From positions 455,113 through 519,112 of the forward strand of contig CAVRET010000001.1 in the NCBI GenBank assembly GCA_963720265.1: a stretch of 64,000 nucleotides of DNA, read 5' to 3'. The notes beneath the pieces are model-generated. The model was given only the letters and a program-made list of their open reading frames with translations, searched no databases and was not told the DNA's origin. The position numbers and the translations under genes were made by a program. Origin of the DNA: an uncultured bacterium. GTDB lineage: Bacteria > Patescibacteriota > Saccharimonadia > UBA4664. This document shows positions 2,183 through 11,946 of the stretch, piece by piece. Within the stretch, counting starts at the first letter, position 1. The number at the start of each line of letters is the position of its first letter.

Positions 2183-4243
2183 TTAATCGAGCGAGGTGAC
2201 GGCTTTGAGCGCATTCACACGGGCTGCTACCTGAGGATATTTTACCATAGCGGCCGGATCAGATAGGAAAGAGAGGGCAAATTTGCGCACATTGGCCAGG
2301 AATTTGACGTCTGAGAGATCGGCCAGTTGGAGGTTGAGCGTGCCATGTTGGCGGCGGCCGTAGATTTCGCCCGGGCCGCGTAGTTCGAGATCGATTTGGG
2401 CCAGACGGAACCCATCTTGGGTTTTTTCAAGCGCACGCAGACGATCGACCGTGCCGGGAGCAGCCGATTCGGCGAGCACAAAACAAAATGAGGGCTGATC
2501 GCTGCGGCCAACGCGGCCACGCAGCTGGTGGAGCGCCGCCAGCCCAAAGCGTTCGGCGCCGTCGATGAGCATAACCGTGGCGTTTGGGATATCAATGCCG
2601 ACTTCAATAACGCTTGTTGCTATGAGAACGTCGAGCCGGCCATCCGCTAGCTGCTCCATCACGGCCTGCTTTTCGGCTGGTTTCAGGCGGCCGTGAAGAA
2701 GACCAAGGCGCCGGTTTTTAAGCGGACCCTTGCTTAATCGTTCGTATTCGGCCGTAACCGACTTGGCACCGAGCTGGTCAGACGGATCAATCAGGGGACA
2801 GACAATAAAGGCCTGATGTCCGGCATCGATCTGTTGATTTATAAATTCGTAAGCTTGGGCGCGGTGTTTAGCGTCGAGCACACGAGTGGTAATGGGCTGA
2901 CGGCCCGGCGGCAAGCCGGCTATGACCGAGATATCAAGGTCGCCGTAGACAGTAAGCTGAAGTGTGCGCGGGATGGGTGTAGCTGTGAGTGAAAGCAAGT
3001 GCGGCAAGCGGCCGGACTTGGCCTTGAGCGTACTACGCTGATTTACTCCAAATCGGTGCTGTTCGTCGACAATAACGAGACCCAGGTTCGAAAATGTAAC
3101 GTCAGCCGACAGGAGCGCTTGCGTTCCGATGACCAACAATGGGCCGCCTTGGCTCAAACGTTCGCCGACAACCCGGCGCTCGGATGCGGGTTGGCCGCCG
3201 AGCACGAGCACTGCTTCGCAGCCGAGTTTCGCGAGCAACGGAGCAAGTCTCGCGGCGTGTTGGCGTGCCAGTACTTCGGTCGGAACCATCAGCGCAGTCT
3301 GGTAGCTGGCCTGCATTGCCATAACCGCCGCCATGACAGCCACTACGGTTTTGCCTGAGCCGACATCCCCTTCGAGCAGGCGGTTCATTGGCTGGTCCTT
3401 GGCCAGGTCCTGGAAAATTTCCCAGGCGGCCTGTTTTTGCTCGGGCGTGAGCTCAAAGTCCAACGATTGCACAAACTTTCTGGCTACATCGACCTGAAAC
3501 GCCACACCTGGGGCGGTCTCGGTCTTGATCTCATGCTTTATAACAAGGCTGGCTAGTACCAGGAACCAGACTTCCTCAAAGGCCAGCCGGTGACGGGCCT
3601 TGGCAAGCGATGCCTCAGTGCTGGGTGAATGGATTTCGCGCAAGGCTTTGGCTCGAGGCATGAGTTTGGCCTGCTTTACCAGTTCGGGCGGCAGGGTTTC
3701 GTCGATAGTGTCGACGAGCGGCAGAAGCGGCTCTATGAGGGCGCGCAATTGTTTGCTGGAAAGCCCCTCGGTTTCCGGGTAGATCGGCACGATGCGCGCG
3801 GTGTCACGGGGGCTGCGATCAGGCCCGAGAACTTCAATGGCCGGCGACTGGAGAGCGAGATCGGCATTTTTAAATTTGAGCTGGCCGGACACGAGTACGG
3901 GAGCTCCGGGTGACAGCGATTTCGCAAGCCACGGCTGATTAAACCAAATAGCTTTTACTGTGCCGGTATTGTCGGAGATGATGGCTTCGGTGAGGTGCAG
4001 CTTGCGAGCTCTGGCATAGCGGCTCGCCACGCGTTCAATCTCGCCTTTAAACGTAACATTGCCCGGCCGCATCAGCCGAATTGGGATAATGTGTGAGAAA
4101 TCGTCGTAGCGGCGGGGGAAATGATTAACGAGGTCGCCGGCCGTAGTAAGGCCGAGGCGCTCAAGCTTTTGGGCTACAGATGGGCCCACGCCCTTGAGCG
4201 AGCCGATTGGCCGTTGCTGCCAGTCATAATCCGATTTCTCCAT
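2183..4243 (-). CDS. recG: ATP-dependent DNA helicase RecG
   Basis: 686-aa ORF with an N-terminal wedge/OB region, Walker A GDVGSGKT, DEQH box (VIVDEQHRFG) and the C-terminal helicase motifs typical of RecG. Confidence 0.9.
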   Translation of the reverse strand: MEKSDYDWQQRPIGSLKGVGPSVAQKLERLGLTTAGDLVNHFPRRYDDFSHIIPIRLMRPGNVTFKGEIERVASRYARARKLHLTEAIISDNTGTVKAIWFNQPWLAKSLSPGAPVLVSGQLKFKNADLALQSPAIEVLGPDRSPRDTARIVPIYPETEGLSSKQLRALIEPLLPLVDTIDETLPPELVKQAKLMPRAKALREIHSPSTEASLAKARHRLAFEEVWFLVLASLVIKHEIKTETAPGVAFQVDVARKFVQSLDFELTPEQKQAAWEIFQDLAKDQPMNRLLEGDVGSGKTVVAVMAAVMAMQASYQTALMVPTEVLARQHAARLAPLLAKLGCEAVLVLGGQPASERRVVGERLSQGGPLLVIGTQALLSADVTFSNLGLVIVDEQHRFGVNQRSTLKAKSGRLPHLLSLTATPIPRTLQLTVYGDLDISVIAGLPPGRQPITTRVLDAKHRAQAYEFINQQIDAGHQAFIVCPLIDPSDQLGAKSVTAEYERLSKGPLKNRRLGLLHGRLKPAEKQAVMEQLADGRLDVLIATSVIEVGIDIPNATVMLIDGAERFGLAALHQLRGRVGRSDQPSFCFVLAESAAPGTVDRLRALEKTQDGFRLAQIDLELRGPGEIYGRRQHGTLNLQLADLSDVKFLANVRKFALSFLSDPAAMVKYPQVAARVNALKAVTSLD

Positions 4244-4394
4244 CAGACTAGTGTAACAAATTGGCTGGCGTATTTTTTAGAACTCGTCTAAGCCTTGAAC
4301 GGTGAGTTCAAAACTTGGACGAGCCTCCCCGCGCTGCAGGCGGCAGCGCGGGGAGTTCCCCTTGTTTCTTTCGGCTCGGGTTGCCGTTCTAGTA

Positions 4395-5594
4395 TCACCG
4401 CCAGCGGATCTTGGCGCCCACGTACCAGGGAGGCACTTCACCGTTCTGAAGCGGTCCGGTGCCGTGCCGGGTGAATGGTTTTTCATCCTGGGCGGGAGCG
4501 CTACTGGCACGGCGTTTGGCGCCGGCCCGCTTCTTGATTCGGATCTCAAGGTTGCCGCCGTAGATACCGCGCACTGCTACCTTGCCGTCGACCGTGAGCT
4601 CGCACATGAGCTCGATACCATGATCGAGTGTCGGTATCTGCGTGGCCGCCTGATAATCGGCGAGCCGCATCCGGATGGTACCGGTTGGTACCTGCTCCTC
4701 GCCGTCGGGGCGAAGGCTGTAGGCTACCGGCAGCGACAGGCTAGCCTTGGGCGTCACGACGACGATCTTATCGGGCGAGAGCGCCAGGCCCGGATCGCGG
4801 AACATCCAGTCCGGCGCGAAATTGTTGCGGTCGAGCGCCAGGTTTACCGCATCGACGTCGCACAGGTTGGCGGCATTGGCGGCGCCGAGTCTGTCAGCAT
4901 AGAATGCCGCCAGCGACCCATCGGTGATGAGTTCGATGATCTCGTGGCCGCCCGACCTGATCCAGAGCTGGACTTGGAGGGTCCGAATCTGGTTATTGAA
5001 AAAGGTATCGCGGTGGTAGATCGACCCGTTCAGGAGTTCTCGCACTACCACGCCGATGAACGCGCCTTCAATCTCGGCAATGAGATTGCGCACGCGCCGG
5101 AGGCAAGCCGTTGCCTCCGGGTAGCCCGTGGGCCTCCAGTGGTCATACAGCCTGGCCACCACCCTACGAGCCTGCTCGAGAGCGGCGTCAAGTTCGCTCA
5201 CGCACACGTGGCGGGTTCGGAGCGTACTTGCCTGTGCTGCGAGCTCGGCCAGATCGGCGGCCAGCGTGTCGTAGTTCTCGACACGCCTTTGCCGTTTGGC
5301 ATGCTCGGTGTAGTGATACTGAAGGCTCGACGCTACGGGAGTGTCGCAAACTTCTTCGCCAGCTGCATCGACCACCACATAGGTGCGCCTCCAGATGGAG
5401 ACGGCTGGATCGATTTCGATTGCGATCAGGTCGTCTGGATGGGCGACCAGCATCGGCGGCACGATGGTCCGTGCGCACAGCCCATAGTCATCCTCATAGC
5501 GTACATGTACCAGGTGTCCGCGGACCTCGACCGAAAAAGCCGACGGCAGCGTGTTGACATCTCCCACGGCAAACCCCTTCCGCTGATTTTTCAA
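4395..5594 (-). CDS. Hypothetical protein (399 aa), function unknown
   Basis: Long ORF with balanced amino-acid composition on the minus strand. The overlapping plus-strand ORF 4302..5636 is Arg-rich and antisense-like. No recognisable family motif. Confidence 0.5.
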   Translation of the reverse strand: MKNQRKGFAVGDVNTLPSAFSVEVRGHLVHVRYEDDYGLCARTIVPPMLVAHPDDLIAIEIDPAVSIWRRTYVVVDAAGEEVCDTPVASSLQYHYTEHAKRQRRVENYDTLAADLAELAAQASTLRTRHVCVSELDAALEQARRVVARLYDHWRPTGYPEATACLRRVRNLIAEIEGAFIGVVVRELLNGSIYHRDTFFNNQIRTLQVQLWIRSGGHEIIELITDGSLAAFYADRLGAANAANLCDVDAVNLALDRNNFAPDWMFRDPGLALSPDKIVVVTPKASLSLPVAYSLRPDGEEQVPTGTIRMRLADYQAATQIPTLDHGIELMCELTVDGKVAVRGIYGGNLEIRIKKRAGAKRRASSAPAQDEKPFTRHGTGPLQNGEVPPWYVGAKIRWR

Positions 5595-5624
5595 TCGGAT
5601 TCTAAATTTATTAGCTGTCCTGCG

Positions 5625-6815
5625 TTAATTGACTAGCTTGTAGAATTCGGTTTTTCCAATGTTGATCTCGTCGCCGGGCTTCACGGCTTGCGCCGGGTCG
5701 GTCACAGTTTCGCCGTTTAAGCGGATGCCGTTTTGCTCTATAAGTGTGCGGACCTGGTTGCGCGAGAGTTTAATCCCCTGCTCCACCAGCAGATCGATGA
5801 GAACGGCCGGCTTTTTGTCGACTTTGAGCTCTTTGATCATATCCTTGGTGGGGCCCAGGTGATCACGGAAGGTGGCGTTCCAGGATTCCTCGGCTTTAAG
5901 GGCTGCTGTGTCCCCATGGTAGAGGCGCACGATTTCGCGCGCGAGCGAGGCCTTGGAGTCGCGCGGGTTGGCGCCTTCGGCCAGGGTTTTTACCAGGCCG
6001 TCAATGGTTTCGAGCGGAATATCGGTGCAGAGCTTGTAGTAGGGAGCGATGAGGTTGTCCGGAACGCTCATGACTTTACCGTACATATCGATGGGCGCGT
6101 CGGTGACGCCGACGTAGTTGTCGAGTGACTTGGACATTTTTTTGACGCCATCGAGGCCAACCAGCAGGTCCAGGGTAAAAACGATCTGTGGGCGCTGGCC
6201 GAGTTTCTTTTGCAGTGCACGGCCGGCCATGAGGTTAAAGAGTTGATCCGAGCCACCAAATTCGACGTCGGCTTCGAGCGCCACTGAGTCGTAGGCTTGC
6301 ATGAGCGGATAGAGCACCTCGTGCAGGGCCAGCTCGTGGCCCTCGCTCAAGCGCTTTTTGAAGTCATCACGTTCGATGGTTTGAGCAACCGAAACGTTTG
6401 AAGCCAAATTGAGCAAATCAGCAAAGCTCAGCTTGGCCAGCCATTCGGAGTTATAGCGGATTTCGGCTTTCTTAACATCCAGGAGGAGGTCAACCTGATC
6501 GAGATAGGTTTTAACATTTTCGGCAATGTCCTTGTCGGACAGCATCGGCCGGGTCTTGTCGCGCCCGGACGGGTCCCCTACTTTCGTGGTGTAGTCGCCG
6601 ATGAGAAAGATGACGGTATGGCCAAGCTCTTGGAATTTGCGGAGTTTGTGAAGTACGAGTGCATGACCAATGTGGAGATCCGGCCGTGTGGGATCGACGC
6701 CAAATTTGATCCGCAGCTTGTGCTTTTTGCCGGTGAGGGCGGCTTCAAGTTCTTCGCGGCCAATAATTTGGTCAACGCCGCGGGTGAGGAGATCGGTGAG
6801 ATCGGATTTGTCCAT
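5625..6815 (-). CDS. tyrS: Tyrosine--tRNA ligase
   Basis: 396 aa with class I aaRS HIGH (PDLHIGH), KMSKS (KKMSKS), and a C-terminal S4-like domain. Confidence 0.9.
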   Translation of the reverse strand: MDKSDLTDLLTRGVDQIIGREELEAALTGKKHKLRIKFGVDPTRPDLHIGHALVLHKLRKFQELGHTVIFLIGDYTTKVGDPSGRDKTRPMLSDKDIAENVKTYLDQVDLLLDVKKAEIRYNSEWLAKLSFADLLNLASNVSVAQTIERDDFKKRLSEGHELALHEVLYPLMQAYDSVALEADVEFGGSDQLFNLMAGRALQKKLGQRPQIVFTLDLLVGLDGVKKMSKSLDNYVGVTDAPIDMYGKVMSVPDNLIAPYYKLCTDIPLETIDGLVKTLAEGANPRDSKASLAREIVRLYHGDTAALKAEESWNATFRDHLGPTKDMIKELKVDKKPAVLIDLLVEQGIKLSRNQVRTLIEQNGIRLNGETVTDPAQAVKPGDEINIGKTEFYKLVN

Positions 6816-6870
6816 ATGCCGCTAAGTGTAGCAGAGGGAGCAAAGATTTTTTAGTGGGGAGATGATTATG

Positions 6871-7789
6871 AACCTGAGTCTCAAAACCCCCACATCAGCT
6901 GGTAGCTGAGCAGAATGCGGACATAGTGAACGAAGTAGCCCATGACACTTCGCGGAAATGAGCTGACGAGGTTCAAATGTTCTTTTAGGTAGTCAAAGGT
7001 GCATTCAACCTTGGGCCGCCTGCGAAGCAGGAGGCCCTGCCAGCTGGCCATGGGCTGCTTCTGGTTGCGTCGAGCGGGAGCCAGTATGTAGGTCTGGTGC
7101 AGATCCCACATCTTCTTGCTCATGACTTTGGCCAGGTAACCACCGTCACCCACGGCAATGACAGTTGCGTCGTTGACCAAATGTGGTATTTGCTGCGAGT
7201 CACTCTCATTGGCCGGCGTAAACCAGATGGCGCACAGACTGCCGTTGGCGGCGCAGCTGGCATGGAGCTTAAAACCAAAATGCCACCCTTGGTGGTTCAT
7301 ACCAAAGTCGGCCACTCCTTGGGCGACTTTGTGCCGGTCGGCCCGGACTAGCTTGCAGACCTCAAGCATGGTTGAGTCCATGAAGACGAGAGGCGCGTCC
7401 TTGACCAACAACTGGTCGAGCATGATGAGCATCTGAGGCAGAGCCAGGTGGCATTTACGGACCCACGATTGGTAACTGGGCAAGTGGAACCGGCGGTAAT
7501 AATACGTTTGGGACCAGATATATACACCCTTGAGGGTGCGTTGCGGGGCTACCAGGCAGCTAAATACCAGTAGGGCAACGCACTCATTTTGGTGCAAGAT
7601 GACGGGGCGGCCGCCCAGGGGATTTGCCGGCTGCCTCGGAAAGAAGCTATCTACCACCTCAACCAGTTTGACGATATGATGAGCACGTAAAAGACGCATT
7701 TGCTATTTCCTTGTTTGTTTTTGTCGACGTAACAAGGACAGCCTAGCGTCTTTTTACTTTGGTGGTCCAGGGGTTTTGAGACTCAGGTT
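6871..7789 (-). mobile_element. Insertion sequence, IS5/IS982-like, ~919 bp, with perfect 20-bp terminal inverted repeats AACCTGAGTCTCAAAACCCC and a 4-bp target-site duplication TATG (6867-6870 and 7790-7793)
   Basis: Left end 6871-6890 equals the reverse complement of right end 7770-7789. The flanking TATG direct repeats are seen directly. Encloses a single DDE transposase ORF. Confidence 0.8.
6881..7699 (-). CDS. DDE transposase of IS5/IS982-like family
   Basis: 272-aa ORF entirely inside the IS, with the stop codon inside the left IR. Contains a DDE_Tnp_1-like signature including ...VIAVGDGGYLAK... (the D-x-G-Y motif). Confidence 0.7.
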   Translation of the reverse strand: MRLLRAHHIVKLVEVVDSFFPRQPANPLGGRPVILHQNECVALLVFSCLVAPQRTLKGVYIWSQTYYYRRFHLPSYQSWVRKCHLALPQMLIMLDQLLVKDAPLVFMDSTMLEVCKLVRADRHKVAQGVADFGMNHQGWHFGFKLHASCAANGSLCAIWFTPANESDSQQIPHLVNDATVIAVGDGGYLAKVMSKKMWDLHQTYILAPARRNQKQPMASWQGLLLRRRPKVECTFDYLKEHLNLVSSFPRSVMGYFVHYVRILLSYQLMWGF

Positions 7790-7853
7790 TATGAGTGTTG
7801 AGTTTATCCTGTTTTTCTTGTATAATTTTCTTTCAACAATTCACTGAGATCCG

Positions 7854-8276
7854 GTGGATTGTGAGTTCCGAGAGGAGCATGGAGCAATGGAGGCTGACAA
7901 GGTCAATCCCGCTGTTCTTAGGCGACGCGATATCCCCGGTTCAGGCTGGCTGGTTCAAGAAAGCCTGCTGAACGCGATAAGAGAAAATGGTTCTGCCGCC
8001 GTGAGGTTGGGTGCTGATGGCCCAATCCTTATCCTCACGAGTCCAATGGACCACCGTTCGGGAAAGGTCGTTCAGGCTAAAGTAGATGTAGGTGGCGCGC
8101 TCGATTGCTCGGACTACGATCAGCTTACGATCCGCAGGACCAGCGATATGCTGCCCGGTGCGCCGGTGGCATTCTGGACAGGCGAGGTGATTTCCGGCCA
8201 GGACCTCAAGTGTGCGCTCGTCCTGGTTTCGCATGGCGTGTATTACCTCTACCCGCTTTTGACGGAGGTGGCTTGA
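7854..8276 (+). CDS. Hypothetical protein (140 aa)
   Basis: Plus-strand ORF with balanced composition downstream of an AT-rich promoter-like region with an extended -10 (TTGTATAAT at ~7828-7836). The overlapping minus ORF 7941..8282 is Arg-rich. Weak call. Confidence 0.3.
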   Translation: MDCEFREEHGAMEADKVNPAVLRRRDIPGSGWLVQESLLNAIRENGSAAVRLGADGPILILTSPMDHRSGKVVQAKVDVGGALDCSDYDQLTIRRTSDMLPGAPVAFWTGEVISGQDLKCALVLVSHGVYYLYPLLTEVA

Positions 8277-8417
8277 GCGCACCGCTTATTACCCGACTAT
8301 CGTGACGGGGGAGTGGCGGGTGAGAGCGCCTCAAATCGGGACAATGGCGCTCGACATTATGAGCTCGGGGTTCAATGGGCTGTTGCGGCCGTTTGGTCGC
8401 AACAGCCCATCGTTGTT

Positions 8418-8966
8418 TTACGGTAGTTTGGCATATAACAACACCAGTAGCAGCGCCGCCCAAACGACTTCGGTAATGAGCCCGGGCGGTTCTTGGTACC
8501 ATTGGATGCCGCCCTCTTTGCTCGAGCCCAGGAAACTGCGCAGAGGACGGTAGCCGGGCACATAGCGTTCCATGGTGCGCCGGGAAAAGAAGGCCTCCGG
8601 GATCCAAATAAAATCGGGCGCCCCGGCGCTCACCGCCCCAATAACAATGTTTGCGGTGCGCTGCGGCCAGGCGATGCAGGCAGCAATAGTTACGATGGTG
8701 GCACCGGCGAAATCAATCGAGCCAATGGCCATAAACAGCGGCGTACCAGGGTCCATATCGGCGCCGTTGCCAAAGTGCGGCAGTGCGTCCTGCACCAAAT
8801 GGGATGCAACGCCGGCAGCGGCTAGCTCGACGGGGTTATCGATTGTTAGGCCAAGCAAAATGCCGGTGAGAGCGTGGTTTGTAAGAAGCATGAGCGTATT
8901 GTACCCCATGGAAAGCGCAAGAAATTTTGGCATTTTCTCAGCCAGGCGGTGATATAATGCGCTCAT
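8418..8966 (-). CDS. Membrane-bound metal-dependent hydrolase-like protein (YdjM/DUF457-like); true start probably downstream of 8966
   Basis: Polytopic membrane protein with conserved His residues (TNHALTG..., HLVQDALPHFG) typical of LexA-regulated YdjM-like proteins. Confidence 0.45.
   Translation of the reverse strand: MSALYHRLAEKMPKFLALSMGYNTLMLLTNHALTGILLGLTIDNPVELAAAGVASHLVQDALPHFGNGADMDPGTPLFMAIGSIDFAGATIVTIAACIAWPQRTANIVIGAVSAGAPDFIWIPEAFFSRRTMERYVPGYRPLRSFLGSSKEGGIQWYQEPPGLITEVVWAALLLVLLYAKLP
8950..8958 (+). promoter_or_regulatory. Extended -10 element TGATATAAT located 7 nt upstream of the PBP ATG; candidate leaderless promoter
   Basis: Sequence ggTGATATAATgcgctcATG seen directly; the spacing would place the TSS at or next to the start codon. 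Confidence 0.3.
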
Positions 8967-11946
8967 GCCTCAACGTCGTGTTCGCAACGTCCGCACCGCG
9001 CGTAAGCCGGCTGCGCCAATCGGGGATCAACACACCGGGTGGCGGGGCATTGGCGGTCACGTCAAGCGTTTCTTTTTGTCGTTTACGCCCAAAAACTTTA
9101 AAAGCTACTGGATAAGCCGGGCTGGCCTTGGACGGCTGGGCAAGTTGATTGGCGCATTCTTTTTGTGTATCCTGCTAGTTTTTTTGTGGTACGCCAAGGA
9201 CCTGCCGACGCCAGGTAAAATTAATGCCCGCATTACTGCCGGCACGACTAAATTTTATGACTCAAGCGGCCAGCATTTACTGTACGAAGTGTACGGTGAT
9301 CAAAACCGCGATGTTATTAGCTTTAGCAATATTCCGGCCAACGCGCGCGATGCCACGATTGCGATCGAGGATAAGAATTTTTACAAGGAGGGCTCGTTTA
9401 GCACGCTGGGAATTTTGCGGGCGGCGTTTGTGGATATAACGCACCACGGCCTTTATCAGGGCGGTTCGACCATTACCCAGCAGTATGTAAAGAACGCGCT
9501 TCTTGATCCGACTGACCGGAGTTTTTCGCGCAAGATCAAGGAGTTGATATTGTCGCTTGAGATTGGTCAGTTTTATTCCAAGGACGACATTTTGTCGTTG
9601 TATTTGAACGAGATTCCATACGGTAATAATGCTTATGGCATTGAGAGTGCCTGCAAGACGTTCTTCCCGCAAGACATTAATAAGGCGTCGACGGACCAAT
9701 TGTGCGCGCCCCAACTTGACCTTGGCCAGGCGGCACTGCTGGCCGCGATCTTAAATGCTCCAACGTATTATTCGCCATACGGCGAGAACACTCCGGAGTT
9801 GCTCGACCGCCAGCACACGGTGCTTGATCTCATGGCAGCACAAGGTTATATCTCGCAGGACCAGGCCGATGCTGCCAAATGGGACCAAACTAAACTGCTG
9901 GCTGAGCGCAACCCCAACCAGGATTTGTATGCGAATCTGGATCCGCGCATGGCGAGCTTCGTGCTGTACGCGCAGGATTACCTAGAGAACAAATATGGGG
10001 CCACGACTGTCACTGAAGGTGGGCTCAAGGTTATTACCACCCTTGATTATCAGAAGCAGATCGATGCCTACAATGCAATTCAGCAAGGCATGCCAAATGT
10101 TCGCGCCTTGGGCGGTTCAAACGCCGCCTTTGTGGCGGCTGACCCCAATAGTGGGCACGTGCTTGTCATGCTCGGCTCGTATGATTTTGATGATCCTAAT
10201 TTCGGCAACTACAACGTTGCACTAGCTGACCGTCAACCGGGCTCAAGCTTTAAGCCGATTGTGTACGCCACGCTGTTTGACACCAACGCCAATGCGCCGT
10301 GTGCGAAGAATCGGTCGTGCCCAACCTATGGGCCAGGCACGACAATGTACGATGTGCCAACCAACTTTGGCACGACCGCTGATCCCTATGAGCCGCACAA
10401 CTTCAACGAAAAGACATACGGGACTATAACCATTCGCCAGGCGCTGGCCGGCTCGCTTAACATTCCGGCCGTGAAGGCACTGGCGATGGCGGGCATTGGT
10501 CCGTCGCTGCAGACCGCGCAACGGCTTGGTATTACAACGCTCGGTACTGATGCCAATAATTACGGGTTATCACTGGTGCTGGGTTCGGGCGGGGTCGAAC
10601 TTAACCAGATGACCAACGCGTATGAATCGTTTGCCAACGGAGGCGAACACTACGACGCCACACCGATCCTGAAGGTCTATGACTCGAAGGGCAACGTGAT
10701 GCTCGACAACACTACTCCGCCCAAGCCGACTCAGGCGCTTGACCCGCAGGTCGCGTATTTGATTAACAACATGCTCGATGACAACAATGCTAAGCAGTAC
10801 ATTTTCGGAAATTTGCTAGCCGTGAAAAATAATTGTGGCGACAACTCGAGCACCAATTGTGTGCATGTGGCAGTTAAGACCGGGACGACCGATGATGTGC
10901 GTGATGCCTGGACCATCGGCTACACGAAAAATCTGGTGGCCGGCGTGTGGGCCGGCAACAACGACAATACGCCGATGACTCTTGAAGCAGCTGACATTTC
11001 TGCACCGATTTGGGAAGACTTTATGAATACAGAGCTTAACGGTGACCCCTCTAAGGCCCCTGCGTGGGTGGCGCCGTCCGGTATTAAGACCGTTACGCTT
11101 GATAAGGCGACTGGCCGCGAGGTAACTGCCGGCACAACCAGCAAAACGACTGATATTTTCCCGAGTTGGTACACGCCGATGTCGGCAACCAACGGCCAGA
11201 CCGCTGAGATCGACACAGTGTCGGGCTTGCTGGCGACCAATTGCACGCCGCCGCTCGCCAGGCAGGAAGTTTACTCCAGCGCGATTCAACCGGAGATAAC
11301 CGAGCAGCAGAATCCAGAGCAATATCAGAATTGGCTCGTGGCTCTGCAGCATGCCGGTTATGATACCAGCGGCACGGTGTTGCCGACCGGCAGTGATGAT
11401 GTTCACCATTGCGATGACGTGCAGCCCACTGTCTCAATTTCGGGGGCGGACGGCGGCGGGCCGTATAATCTCAATATTCAGGTCACATCCGGGACCTTCA
11501 CGGCTAACAAGCTTGAGGTCGACTTTGATAGTCAGGTCATTTCGACGCAAACGATTAACGGGTCGGGTGTTTACCAAGTAGCGTACACGCCCACTGATAG
11601 CGGAACTCATACCTTTAAAGCGATCGTGACCGATGCTGGGCTATACCAGTCAACGGCTACGCAAACGGTCAATGTTACGGACACCGGCGGAGGAAATGGT
11701 ACTACACAGGGCTTTAGCGGCGTGTCTCCGACCGATGGGAGTCAGCTGTCATCGAACACGATTAACTTTAGCTGGACAACTGACCCAGGGGCCAACTTCT
11801 ACTCGTTATACGTTGACGGCCAATTGCGCGCCACTACATCCGGCACGAGTCACACGCTTTCCCTTGGTTCAGGCAATCACACCTGGTATGTGCAAGACGA
11901 CCAGGGCAATCAGACGCAGACGGAAAGTTTCCAGATCAGTCCGTAG
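8965..11946 (+). CDS. Class A penicillin-binding protein (PBP1A-type transglycosylase/transpeptidase) with C-terminal Ig/FN3-like repeats
   Basis: GT51 motifs (EDKNFY, GGSTITQQ), transpeptidase SxxK (SSFKP), SxN (SLN), KTG (KTGTT); N-terminal TM anchor; C-terminal ~250-aa beta-rich extension. The start may be later (TTG near 9140). Confidence 0.85.
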   Translation: MPQRRVRNVRTARKPAAPIGDQHTGWRGIGGHVKRFFLSFTPKNFKSYWISRAGLGRLGKLIGAFFLCILLVFLWYAKDLPTPGKINARITAGTTKFYDSSGQHLLYEVYGDQNRDVISFSNIPANARDATIAIEDKNFYKEGSFSTLGILRAAFVDITHHGLYQGGSTITQQYVKNALLDPTDRSFSRKIKELILSLEIGQFYSKDDILSLYLNEIPYGNNAYGIESACKTFFPQDINKASTDQLCAPQLDLGQAALLAAILNAPTYYSPYGENTPELLDRQHTVLDLMAAQGYISQDQADAAKWDQTKLLAERNPNQDLYANLDPRMASFVLYAQDYLENKYGATTVTEGGLKVITTLDYQKQIDAYNAIQQGMPNVRALGGSNAAFVAADPNSGHVLVMLGSYDFDDPNFGNYNVALADRQPGSSFKPIVYATLFDTNANAPCAKNRSCPTYGPGTTMYDVPTNFGTTADPYEPHNFNEKTYGTITIRQALAGSLNIPAVKALAMAGIGPSLQTAQRLGITTLGTDANNYGLSLVLGSGGVELNQMTNAYESFANGGEHYDATPILKVYDSKGNVMLDNTTPPKPTQALDPQVAYLINNMLDDNNAKQYIFGNLLAVKNNCGDNSSTNCVHVAVKTGTTDDVRDAWTIGYTKNLVAGVWAGNNDNTPMTLEAADISAPIWEDFMNTELNGDPSKAPAWVAPSGIKTVTLDKATGREVTAGTTSKTTDIFPSWYTPMSATNGQTAEIDTVSGLLATNCTPPLARQEVYSSAIQPEITEQQNPEQYQNWLVALQHAGYDTSGTVLPTGSDDVHHCDDVQPTVSISGADGGGPYNLNIQVTSGTFTANKLEVDFDSQVISTQTINGSGVYQVAYTPTDSGTHTFKAIVTDAGLYQSTATQTVNVTDTGGGNGTTQGFSGVSPTDGSQLSSNTINFSWTTDPGANFYSLYVDGQLRATTSGTSHTLSLGSGNHTWYVQDDQGNQTQTESFQISP

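Follow-up and report, generated by a model that had tools for sequence, protein, structure and literature searches.

An IS982-family element inserted between tyrS and a divergent gene in a Saccharimonadia bacterium probably leaves the putative core promoters intact

Insertion sequences (IS) of the IS982 family measure 845-1282 bp, carry inverted repeats (IRs) of 11-32 bp and duplicate 2-10 bp of target on insertion; of 69 members, 57 start with AC (PMC7335449). Formation of hybrid promoters has been documented for members including ISAba825 (PMC7335449). Upstream of blaOXA in Acinetobacter, ISAba825, ISAba9 and ISAba4 are inserted a few tens of bp before the gene, which is driven by an outward -35 or by a full promoter in the IS end. 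The element described here likewise has a gene, tyrS, a few tens of bp downstream, within a 64-kb window (the whole stretch of DNA that was analysed) from a Saccharimonadia bacterium. In contrast to the ISAba825-type cases, no outward consensus promoter was found in this element, and tyrS keeps a conserved putative promoter of its own.

A second system for comparison is the leaderless genes of Actinobacteria and Deinococcus-Thermus, whose published signature is a TANNNT some 12 nt ahead of the start codon (PMC3160421). As in those genes, TGnTAnnnT stands 6-10 nt before the ATG at the present locus with no Shine-Dalgarno sequence, its position is conserved across relatives, and it recurs at several genes of the window. 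Unlike strict leaderless genes with the AUG at +1, the 9-nt spacing at tyrS suggests a leader of 2-3 nt. The literature that was searched yielded no transcription-start, leaderless or IS-element study specific to Saccharimonadia/Saccharibacteria, and the host lineage, one of the Patescibacteria, is absent from the ISfinder hosts listed in PMC7335449.

In the following we argue that the insertion was nearly neutral: it probably fell between two divergent core promoters and left tyrS on its own near-leaderless extended -10 promoter, a reading to which we assign a probability of roughly three in four.

An IS982-family element beside tyrS

The features of tyrS and of the element are as follows.

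5625-6815, minus strand: tyrS, tyrosine-tRNA ligase, 396 aa (TIGR00234, 356.8 bits; PF00579 plus S4 domain)
6866-6871: target-site duplication copy 1, TTATGA, which includes the TATG of the preliminary description
6872-7788, minus strand: IS982-family insertion sequence, 917 bp, ACC...GGT, with perfect IRs and the ends and length of its relatives
6872-6890, plus strand: right inverted repeat, adjoining tyrS, with the transposase stop codon (6881-6883) inside it
6881-7699, minus strand: transposase CDS, 272 aa (NF033520, PF13612), with the predicted DDE triad D108, D185, E232
7770-7788, minus strand: left inverted repeat, upstream of the transposase, ACCTGAGTCTCAAAACCCC
7789-7794: target-site duplication copy 2, TTATGA, where Logan contig L127 begins

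The transposase exceeded the 130-bit cut-off of the NCBIfam model NF033520 (IS982), scoring 139.7 bits (E = 1.2e-40) over profile positions 5-242 of 243, and it matched Pfam PF13612 (DDE_Tnp_1_3) with 101.7 bits, at the 1e-29 level. The IS5 models gave 47 and 28 bits against cut-offs of 110 and 140, and the IS1182 and IS4 models also scored far under their cut-offs. The element had been labelled "IS5/IS982-like"; the IS982 half of this label holds, as NF033520 is above its cut-off, and membership of IS5 was rejected on scores far below theirs. The ORF is full length (272 aa, compared with 272-273 aa in relatives). In an alignment of 22 sequences, the transposase with 21 homologues of 66-90% identity, D108 (in FMDST), D185 (GDGGY) and E232 (ECTF) were invariant, and by motif these residues are the predicted catalytic triad.

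The architecture also agrees with the family. Like other IS982 elements, this one has a single DDE transposase ORF (about 270-290 aa in the family) with its stop codon inside the right repeat, and its 917 bp, 19-bp repeats beginning 5'-AC and 6-bp duplication lie within the family ranges. In length it stands at the short end of the family. With the commonest inner repeat positions, AC(N)6T(N)5TT, it shares AC only, as C stands at position 9 and AC at positions 15-16; this pattern is a tendency among ISfinder members and not a requirement, and the repeat logos are cluster-specific (PMC7335449).

The transposase has more than 1000 homologues. Most of them lie on contigs some 0.9-1.5 kb long, as is usual for collapsed repeats, and those few that bear a name are entered as 'IS982 family transposase [Candidatus Saccharimonadales bacterium]', the nearest annotated ones being P0150 and P0162 at about 70% identity. 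To our knowledge the present element has no name; it is an IS982 member in a lineage where IS982 elements have already been annotated by NCBI.

Element boundaries and evidence for the filled site

The preliminary description gave an intact element with perfect 20-bp terminal repeats and TATG on both flanks, that is 6871-7789 or 919 bp. Indeed, the 20-bp repeat AACCTGAGTCTCAAAACCCC had exactly two matches in the 64-kb window, 6871-6890 (plus) and 7770-7789 (minus); there were still just two when three mismatches were allowed, and none in 100 shuffles. TATG occupies 6867-6870 and 7790-7793, outside both ends of these repeats. Whether the A/T pair at the outer edge of the 20-bp repeats belongs to the element or to the flank is ambiguous, and the same bases can be read as 19-bp repeats, a 917-bp element one base further inside on each side, and a 6-bp duplication, TTATGA.

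To define the ends in relatives, 77 related IS copies were fetched from JGI metagenomes and their ends were located. Copies of 62-90% identity start with ACCTG and end with CAGGT, relatives of 60-90% identity match the present element in ends and length, and the identical 19-mer ACCTGAGTCTCAAAACCCC was present at the ends of related copies in 11 of the fetched loci. Perfect inverted repeats are the norm among these copies. Clear duplications, with both flanks present, were 6 bp long in 10 loci (among them ACTCCA, TTGGTA, CTTGGC, ATAGCA, GTAAGA, TATAAG, GAATGA, ATGAAA and AATTGA), and duplications of 7-9 bp occurred in a few. Only duplications of at least 6 bp were counted. The two repeat ends form a palindrome with each other, and automated detection with inward trimming therefore also reported false CG/CGCG repeats of 2-4 bp, which were ignored. 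Some related copies had no duplication at all; such copies may stem from chimeric assembly of a multicopy repeat or from rearrangement.

We prefer the reading of 917 bp with a 6-bp duplication, because of the ACC/GGT ends and 6-bp mode of the relatives, the Logan breakpoints (see below) and the AC starts in IS982. The original picture of an intact element was thus confirmed and its limits were refined. The 55 nt (6816-6870) formerly counted from the element to the tyrS ATG are correct for the 919-bp version, and the preferred boundaries leave 56 bp.

An independent assembly was available for the same locus. The Logan assembly of run ERR11523669 contains TyrS, the transposase and the 129-aa neighbour as exact matches, each on a contig of its own. 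The tyrS contig (L001) stops at window position 6871 and carries TTATGA; a unitig of 918 bp (L002) is 100% identical to 6872-7789; the contig of the other flank (L127) starts at 7789 and carries TTATGA. With TTATGA present on either flank, the reads of ERR11523669 do contain the filled site. A break of the assembly graph exactly at the element ends is expected for a repeat with several flanks. The junctions therefore bear out the earlier claim of a genuine insertion with target duplication, between tyrS and the divergent promoter.

Could the repeat have been misplaced at the tyrS locus by the assembler, with a flanking repeat arising by chance? Multicopy IS elements often give chimeric joins, and several of the metagenomic relatives lack a duplication, as noted above. 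Nevertheless, two independent flank contigs stop exactly at the element ends with TTATGA on each, while an empty site would give one TTATGA copy and a continuous contig. In addition, a 6-bp match by chance has a frequency of about 1 in 4096, and the length of the duplication equals the family mode. An assembly artefact is hence very improbable.

The exact transposase was recorded on two contigs, the longest being 1,108,292 bp, and TyrS and the 129-aa ORF are on a contig of 567,794 bp. Therefore at least one further identical copy exists elsewhere and the element is multicopy; within the window, tblastn and blastn found no second IS copy or fragments.

The empty site was reconstructed as ...GGGGAGATGATTATGA^GTGTTGAGTTT... 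(k-mer form GGGGAGATGATTATGAGTGTTGAGTTTATCC), and the empty-site sequence GATTATGAGTGTTG is identical under the 917-bp and 919-bp readings. No empty-site allele was found among TyrS relatives in GTDB genomes, in the protein database and on their contigs, by a pattern search over all fetched loci, or by exact look-ups of TyrS and the 129-aa ORF. This is because in the closest available relatives other genes lie to either side of tyrS: the 129-aa ORF and a 399-aa ORF are strain-specific, with no homologue in the relatives' loci. The best TyrS match was 49% identical among GTDB species representatives and 88% in the protein database, where homologues of 70-88% came from Saccharimonadia; together with the named transposases, these place the host in Saccharimonadia (TM7, Patescibacteria). 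One listed TyrS cluster representative (P0249) proved to be an unrelated 52-aa peptide, a clustering artefact, and was discarded. Recent transposition is plausible, with the intact duplication, the intact ORF and the identical second copy in its support.

A putative extended -10 promoter directly before the tyrS start codon

The candidate promoter lies in the 56-bp remnant between the element and tyrS.

6825-6833, minus strand: putative tyrS extended -10, TGCTACACT, 9 nt before the ATG and conserved in relatives

On the tyrS strand the remnant consists of TCATAATCATCTCCCCACTAAAAAATCTTTGCTCCCTC, TGCTACACT, TAGCGGCAT and then the ATG. TGCTACACT has the extended -10 pattern, TGn followed by TAnnnT, and TAGCGGCAT is the 9-nt spacer to the start codon. 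There is no Shine-Dalgarno sequence, as neither GGAGG, GAGG nor AGGA occurs in the 25 nt before the ATG. The N-terminus of the protein, MDKSDLTDLL, is conserved in relatives.

The motif was found, as TG(C/G)TA(C/A/T)A(C/A)T located 7-10 nt before the start, in nine Saccharimonadia relatives; the loci, listed below, comprise relatives whose TyrS identity is 71-88% and two more distant Saccharibacteria.

L038, TyrS 88%: TGCTACACT, 9 nt before ATG
L039-42, TyrS 88%: TGCTACACT, 9 nt before ATG
L120, TyrS about 76%: TGGTAAACT, 10 nt before ATG
L121, TyrS 77%: TGCTAAACT, 8 nt before ATG
L123, TyrS 75%: TGCTAAACT, 9 nt before ATG
L125/126, TyrS 73%: TGCTACACT, 9 nt before ATG
L008, TyrS more distant: TGCTATACT, 7 nt before ATG
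L010, TyrS more distant: TGCTATAAT, 10 nt before ATG

The upstream neighbours of tyrS vary among these relatives (a co-directional NUDIX gene, small ORFs, a glycosyltransferase, a divergent PBP gene), and their DNA beyond about -20 of tyrS shows no conservation. Because motif and spacing are conserved in relatives with unrelated upstream DNA, the native promoter has probably been retained. The preliminary description had offered a -10 in the remnant as its third option for tyrS transcription, and it is this option that the conserved TGCTACACT favours. Based on the usual distance from -10 to start, the tyrS transcript is predicted to begin at about 6817-6818, giving a leader of 2-3 nt.

Other genes of the window have a similar layout. 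recG has TGTTACACT followed by 6 nt and the ATG at 4243 (minus), the PBP gene has TGATATAAT followed by 6 nt and the ATG at 8965 (plus), and both layouts are conserved in relatives. For ORFs of 100 aa or longer, TGnTAnnnT stood 6-10 nt ahead of the initial ATG in nine cases in the window, at least one of them an antisense false positive, as compared with eight in total (about 0.3 per spacing) at the 26 other spacings in 0-30 nt. This indirect evidence suggests that the Saccharimonadia clade commonly uses extended -10 promoters directly against start codons, as at tyrS, recG and the PBP gene.

Some features count against TGCTACACT as the native promoter. Its -10 hexamer, TACACT, has four of six consensus matches, by sigma-70 rules that are not validated in Saccharimonadia; the -35 region TAAAAA (about 6848-6853) is weak; and the site was absent from the output of a simple promoter scan. 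A further point against it is the 9-nt spacing, which somewhat exceeds the classic optimum for leaderless genes. On balance, from motif, spacing and conservation we infer that TGCTACACT is the active promoter, with the transcript start given above and a near-neutral insertion upstream of it.

In Firmicutes and some other phyla, tyrS is often controlled by a T-box. The present leader had been judged too short for one, and a search with Rfam families including T-box over 5000-9500, on both strands, gave no match at E<=1. Relatives have only 27-117 bp upstream of tyrS. Since their upstream regions are just as short, the absence of a T-box and the short leader itself go back to the ancestry of this clade, and the IS caused neither.

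Two putative divergent promoters and the position of the insertion

On the far side of the element lies the other part of the intergenic region.

7798-7826, plus strand: promoter-like site TTGAGT-17-TATAAT, 10/12 matches, facing the divergent plus-strand gene
7887-8276, plus strand: 129-aa ORF with no family match, a GAGGAG ribosome-binding site 9 nt upstream, also called in ERR11523669

The locus was first described as a case of IS-driven promoter replacement. On this reading the insertion severed tyrS from its original promoter, and its expression would now come mainly from read-through of the transposase promoter or from a promoter, outward-facing or hybrid, at the end of the IS. Several observations are compatible with this. 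The transposase is co-oriented with tyrS, as had been stated, for both ORFs (6881-7699 and 5625-6815) are on the minus strand, and its stop codon inside the repeat is separated from the tyrS ATG by only 66 nt. Neither an intrinsic terminator nor a structured insulator was found between the two genes, the fold of 6790-6920 not being unusual (z = -1.64). A weak candidate transposase promoter, TGGACC-18-TAGGCT (7769-7740, minus), can be read from the sequence by eye. Moreover, the TTGAGA of the repeat is a 5/6 match to the -35 hexamer, and ISAba825 offers a precedent for hybrid promoters within the family.

However, the sequence 16-18 nt on from TTGAGA is TCTCCC, CTCCCC or TCCCCA, with no -10 among them. 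The CATAAT at the junction, which is native target sequence, has GTGGGG at the -35 position and hence no usable -35, and the promoter scan of 6600-8100 found no sigma-70-like site on the minus strand. A read-through transcript would have no Shine-Dalgarno sequence before tyrS. The AT-rich region beyond the IS, formerly taken for the original tyrS promoter, has a promoter-like site that faces the plus-strand gene. Meanwhile, the remnant keeps the conserved extended -10 in the same place as in IS-free relatives. Taken together, promoter replacement is unlikely. Read-through into tyrS could still contribute, and could even dominate if the IS promoter were strong.

The geometry of the insertion supports the reading of two spared core promoters. 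In the reconstructed empty site the 129-aa ORF is the divergent neighbour of tyrS, and the tyrS -35 region and the divergent -35 (7798-7803) are 21 bp apart. The IS lies inside this gap, 18 nt past the tyrS -35 and 3 nt (9 nt with the duplicated copy) from the divergent -35. TTGAGT-17-TATAAT begins 9 nt from the IS end and was the only site that the scan reported in 6600-8100. Both putative core promoters thus appear intact after the insertion. Nowhere in the intergenic region outside this gap should an insertion be expected to leave an essential gene unharmed, which fits survivorship under selection.

A further alternative is that the core promoter survives and the insertion nonetheless alters the regulation or level of tyrS, by loss of the DNA beyond about -55, by interference or by read-through. 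An UP-like A-tract context may have been part of the lost upstream DNA, as may a regulator site serving both divergent promoters, each of which loses its far-upstream DNA at the short distances just given. In addition, the co-oriented transposase has no terminator after it. Against this, the relatives' DNA beyond about -20 is unconserved, which argues against an important upstream operator, and extended -10 promoters depend little on upstream elements. We regard altered regulation as rather unlikely.

The nearly neutral insertion can accordingly be outlined as a sequence of proposed steps. A multicopy IS982 element transposed between tyrS and a divergent strain-specific gene, duplicating the 6-bp TTATGA. 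Insertion into the gap of about 21 bp between back-to-back -35 regions would leave both core promoters untouched, and tyrS would still be transcribed from its own extended -10 TGCTACACT, leaderless or with a 2-3-nt leader and with no Shine-Dalgarno sequence. The IS would not need to supply a promoter; at most it would add read-through and remove native DNA beyond about -55.

As a routine intergenic insertion of the IS982 family, the event on its own matters little. It does correct the element boundaries to 917 bp with a 6-bp duplication, and it illustrates that an IS beside an essential gene need not mean promoter capture. Several related IS copies lie 15-115 bp from ORF starts, in a small sample with crude ORF calls. 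A broader proposal, which we hold to be doubtful at present, is that narrow gaps ahead of core promoters are favoured sites of landing or of survival for this group of IS982 elements in Saccharimonadia, and that a start-abutting extended -10 makes essential genes such as tyrS tolerant of insertions a few tens of bp away on the upstream side. If true, such tolerance would let IS persist at high copy in very small, gene-dense genomes. In a weaker version of the proposal, read-through out of the IS would change tyrS expression to a measurable degree. Start-abutting promoters, if RNA data confirm them, would be of use in Patescibacteria genetics, both for calling gene starts and for designing promoters.

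Variable slots beside tyrS

A backbone consisting of the PBP gene, an ORF of 163-182 aa, tyrS and recG is conserved, and variable slots break into it. In the window, these slots beside tyrS hold two strain-specific ORFs.

4395-5594, minus strand: ORF of 399 aa, on one flank of tyrS
7887-8276, plus strand: ORF of 129 aa, on the other flank of tyrS

Neither ORF matched Pfam or NCBIfam, and no counterpart of either was found among the relatives examined, in which other small genes occupy the same slots. The 399-aa ORF is overlapped almost entirely by an ORF of 444 aa on the opposite strand (4302-5636, plus strand). This region is GC-rich, and GC-rich DNA is prone to long spurious antisense ORFs. 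For the overlap, the gene call in Logan (an independent assembly of run ERR11523669) favoured the minus-strand ORF, at 390 aa.

The representative of the 90% protein cluster containing this TyrS is P0249, a 52-aa peptide that is unrelated to it and comes from long-read contigs of low coverage (L128 and L129). This representative was rejected as a clustering artefact of the protein collection with no biological meaning.

The IS982 element and related copies

In the minus-strand RNA at 6850-6900, base pairing is possible between GUGGGGG of the IS end and UCCCCAC of the native flank, giving a hairpin at the junction that spans the right repeat (the terminal inverted repeat adjoining tyrS). No U-run follows this hairpin, and the fold was not significant compared with shuffled sequences.

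Related IS982 copies in JGI metagenomes of soil and rhizosphere (L043-L058; a small sample with crude ORF calls) were mostly intergenic, lying 15-115 bp off ORF ends or starts. Their left-repeat side often faced a divergent ORF, as it does in the window.

Extended -10 elements before ORF starts

As listed below, eight ORF starts in the window sequence lie 6-10 nt downstream of the extended -10 element TGnTAnnnT.

4243, minus strand: recG
6815, minus strand: tyrS
8965, plus strand: PBP gene
14477, minus strand: ORF start
27669, plus strand: ORF start
29173, minus strand: ORF start
54123, plus strand: ORF start
58824, minus strand: ORF start

No obvious Shine-Dalgarno sequence was seen at these long ORFs in the window. 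In relatives, recG and the PBP gene likewise keep the element. The sequence pattern suggests that extended -10 promoters with leaderless or near-leaderless transcription are common in this Saccharimonadia clade.
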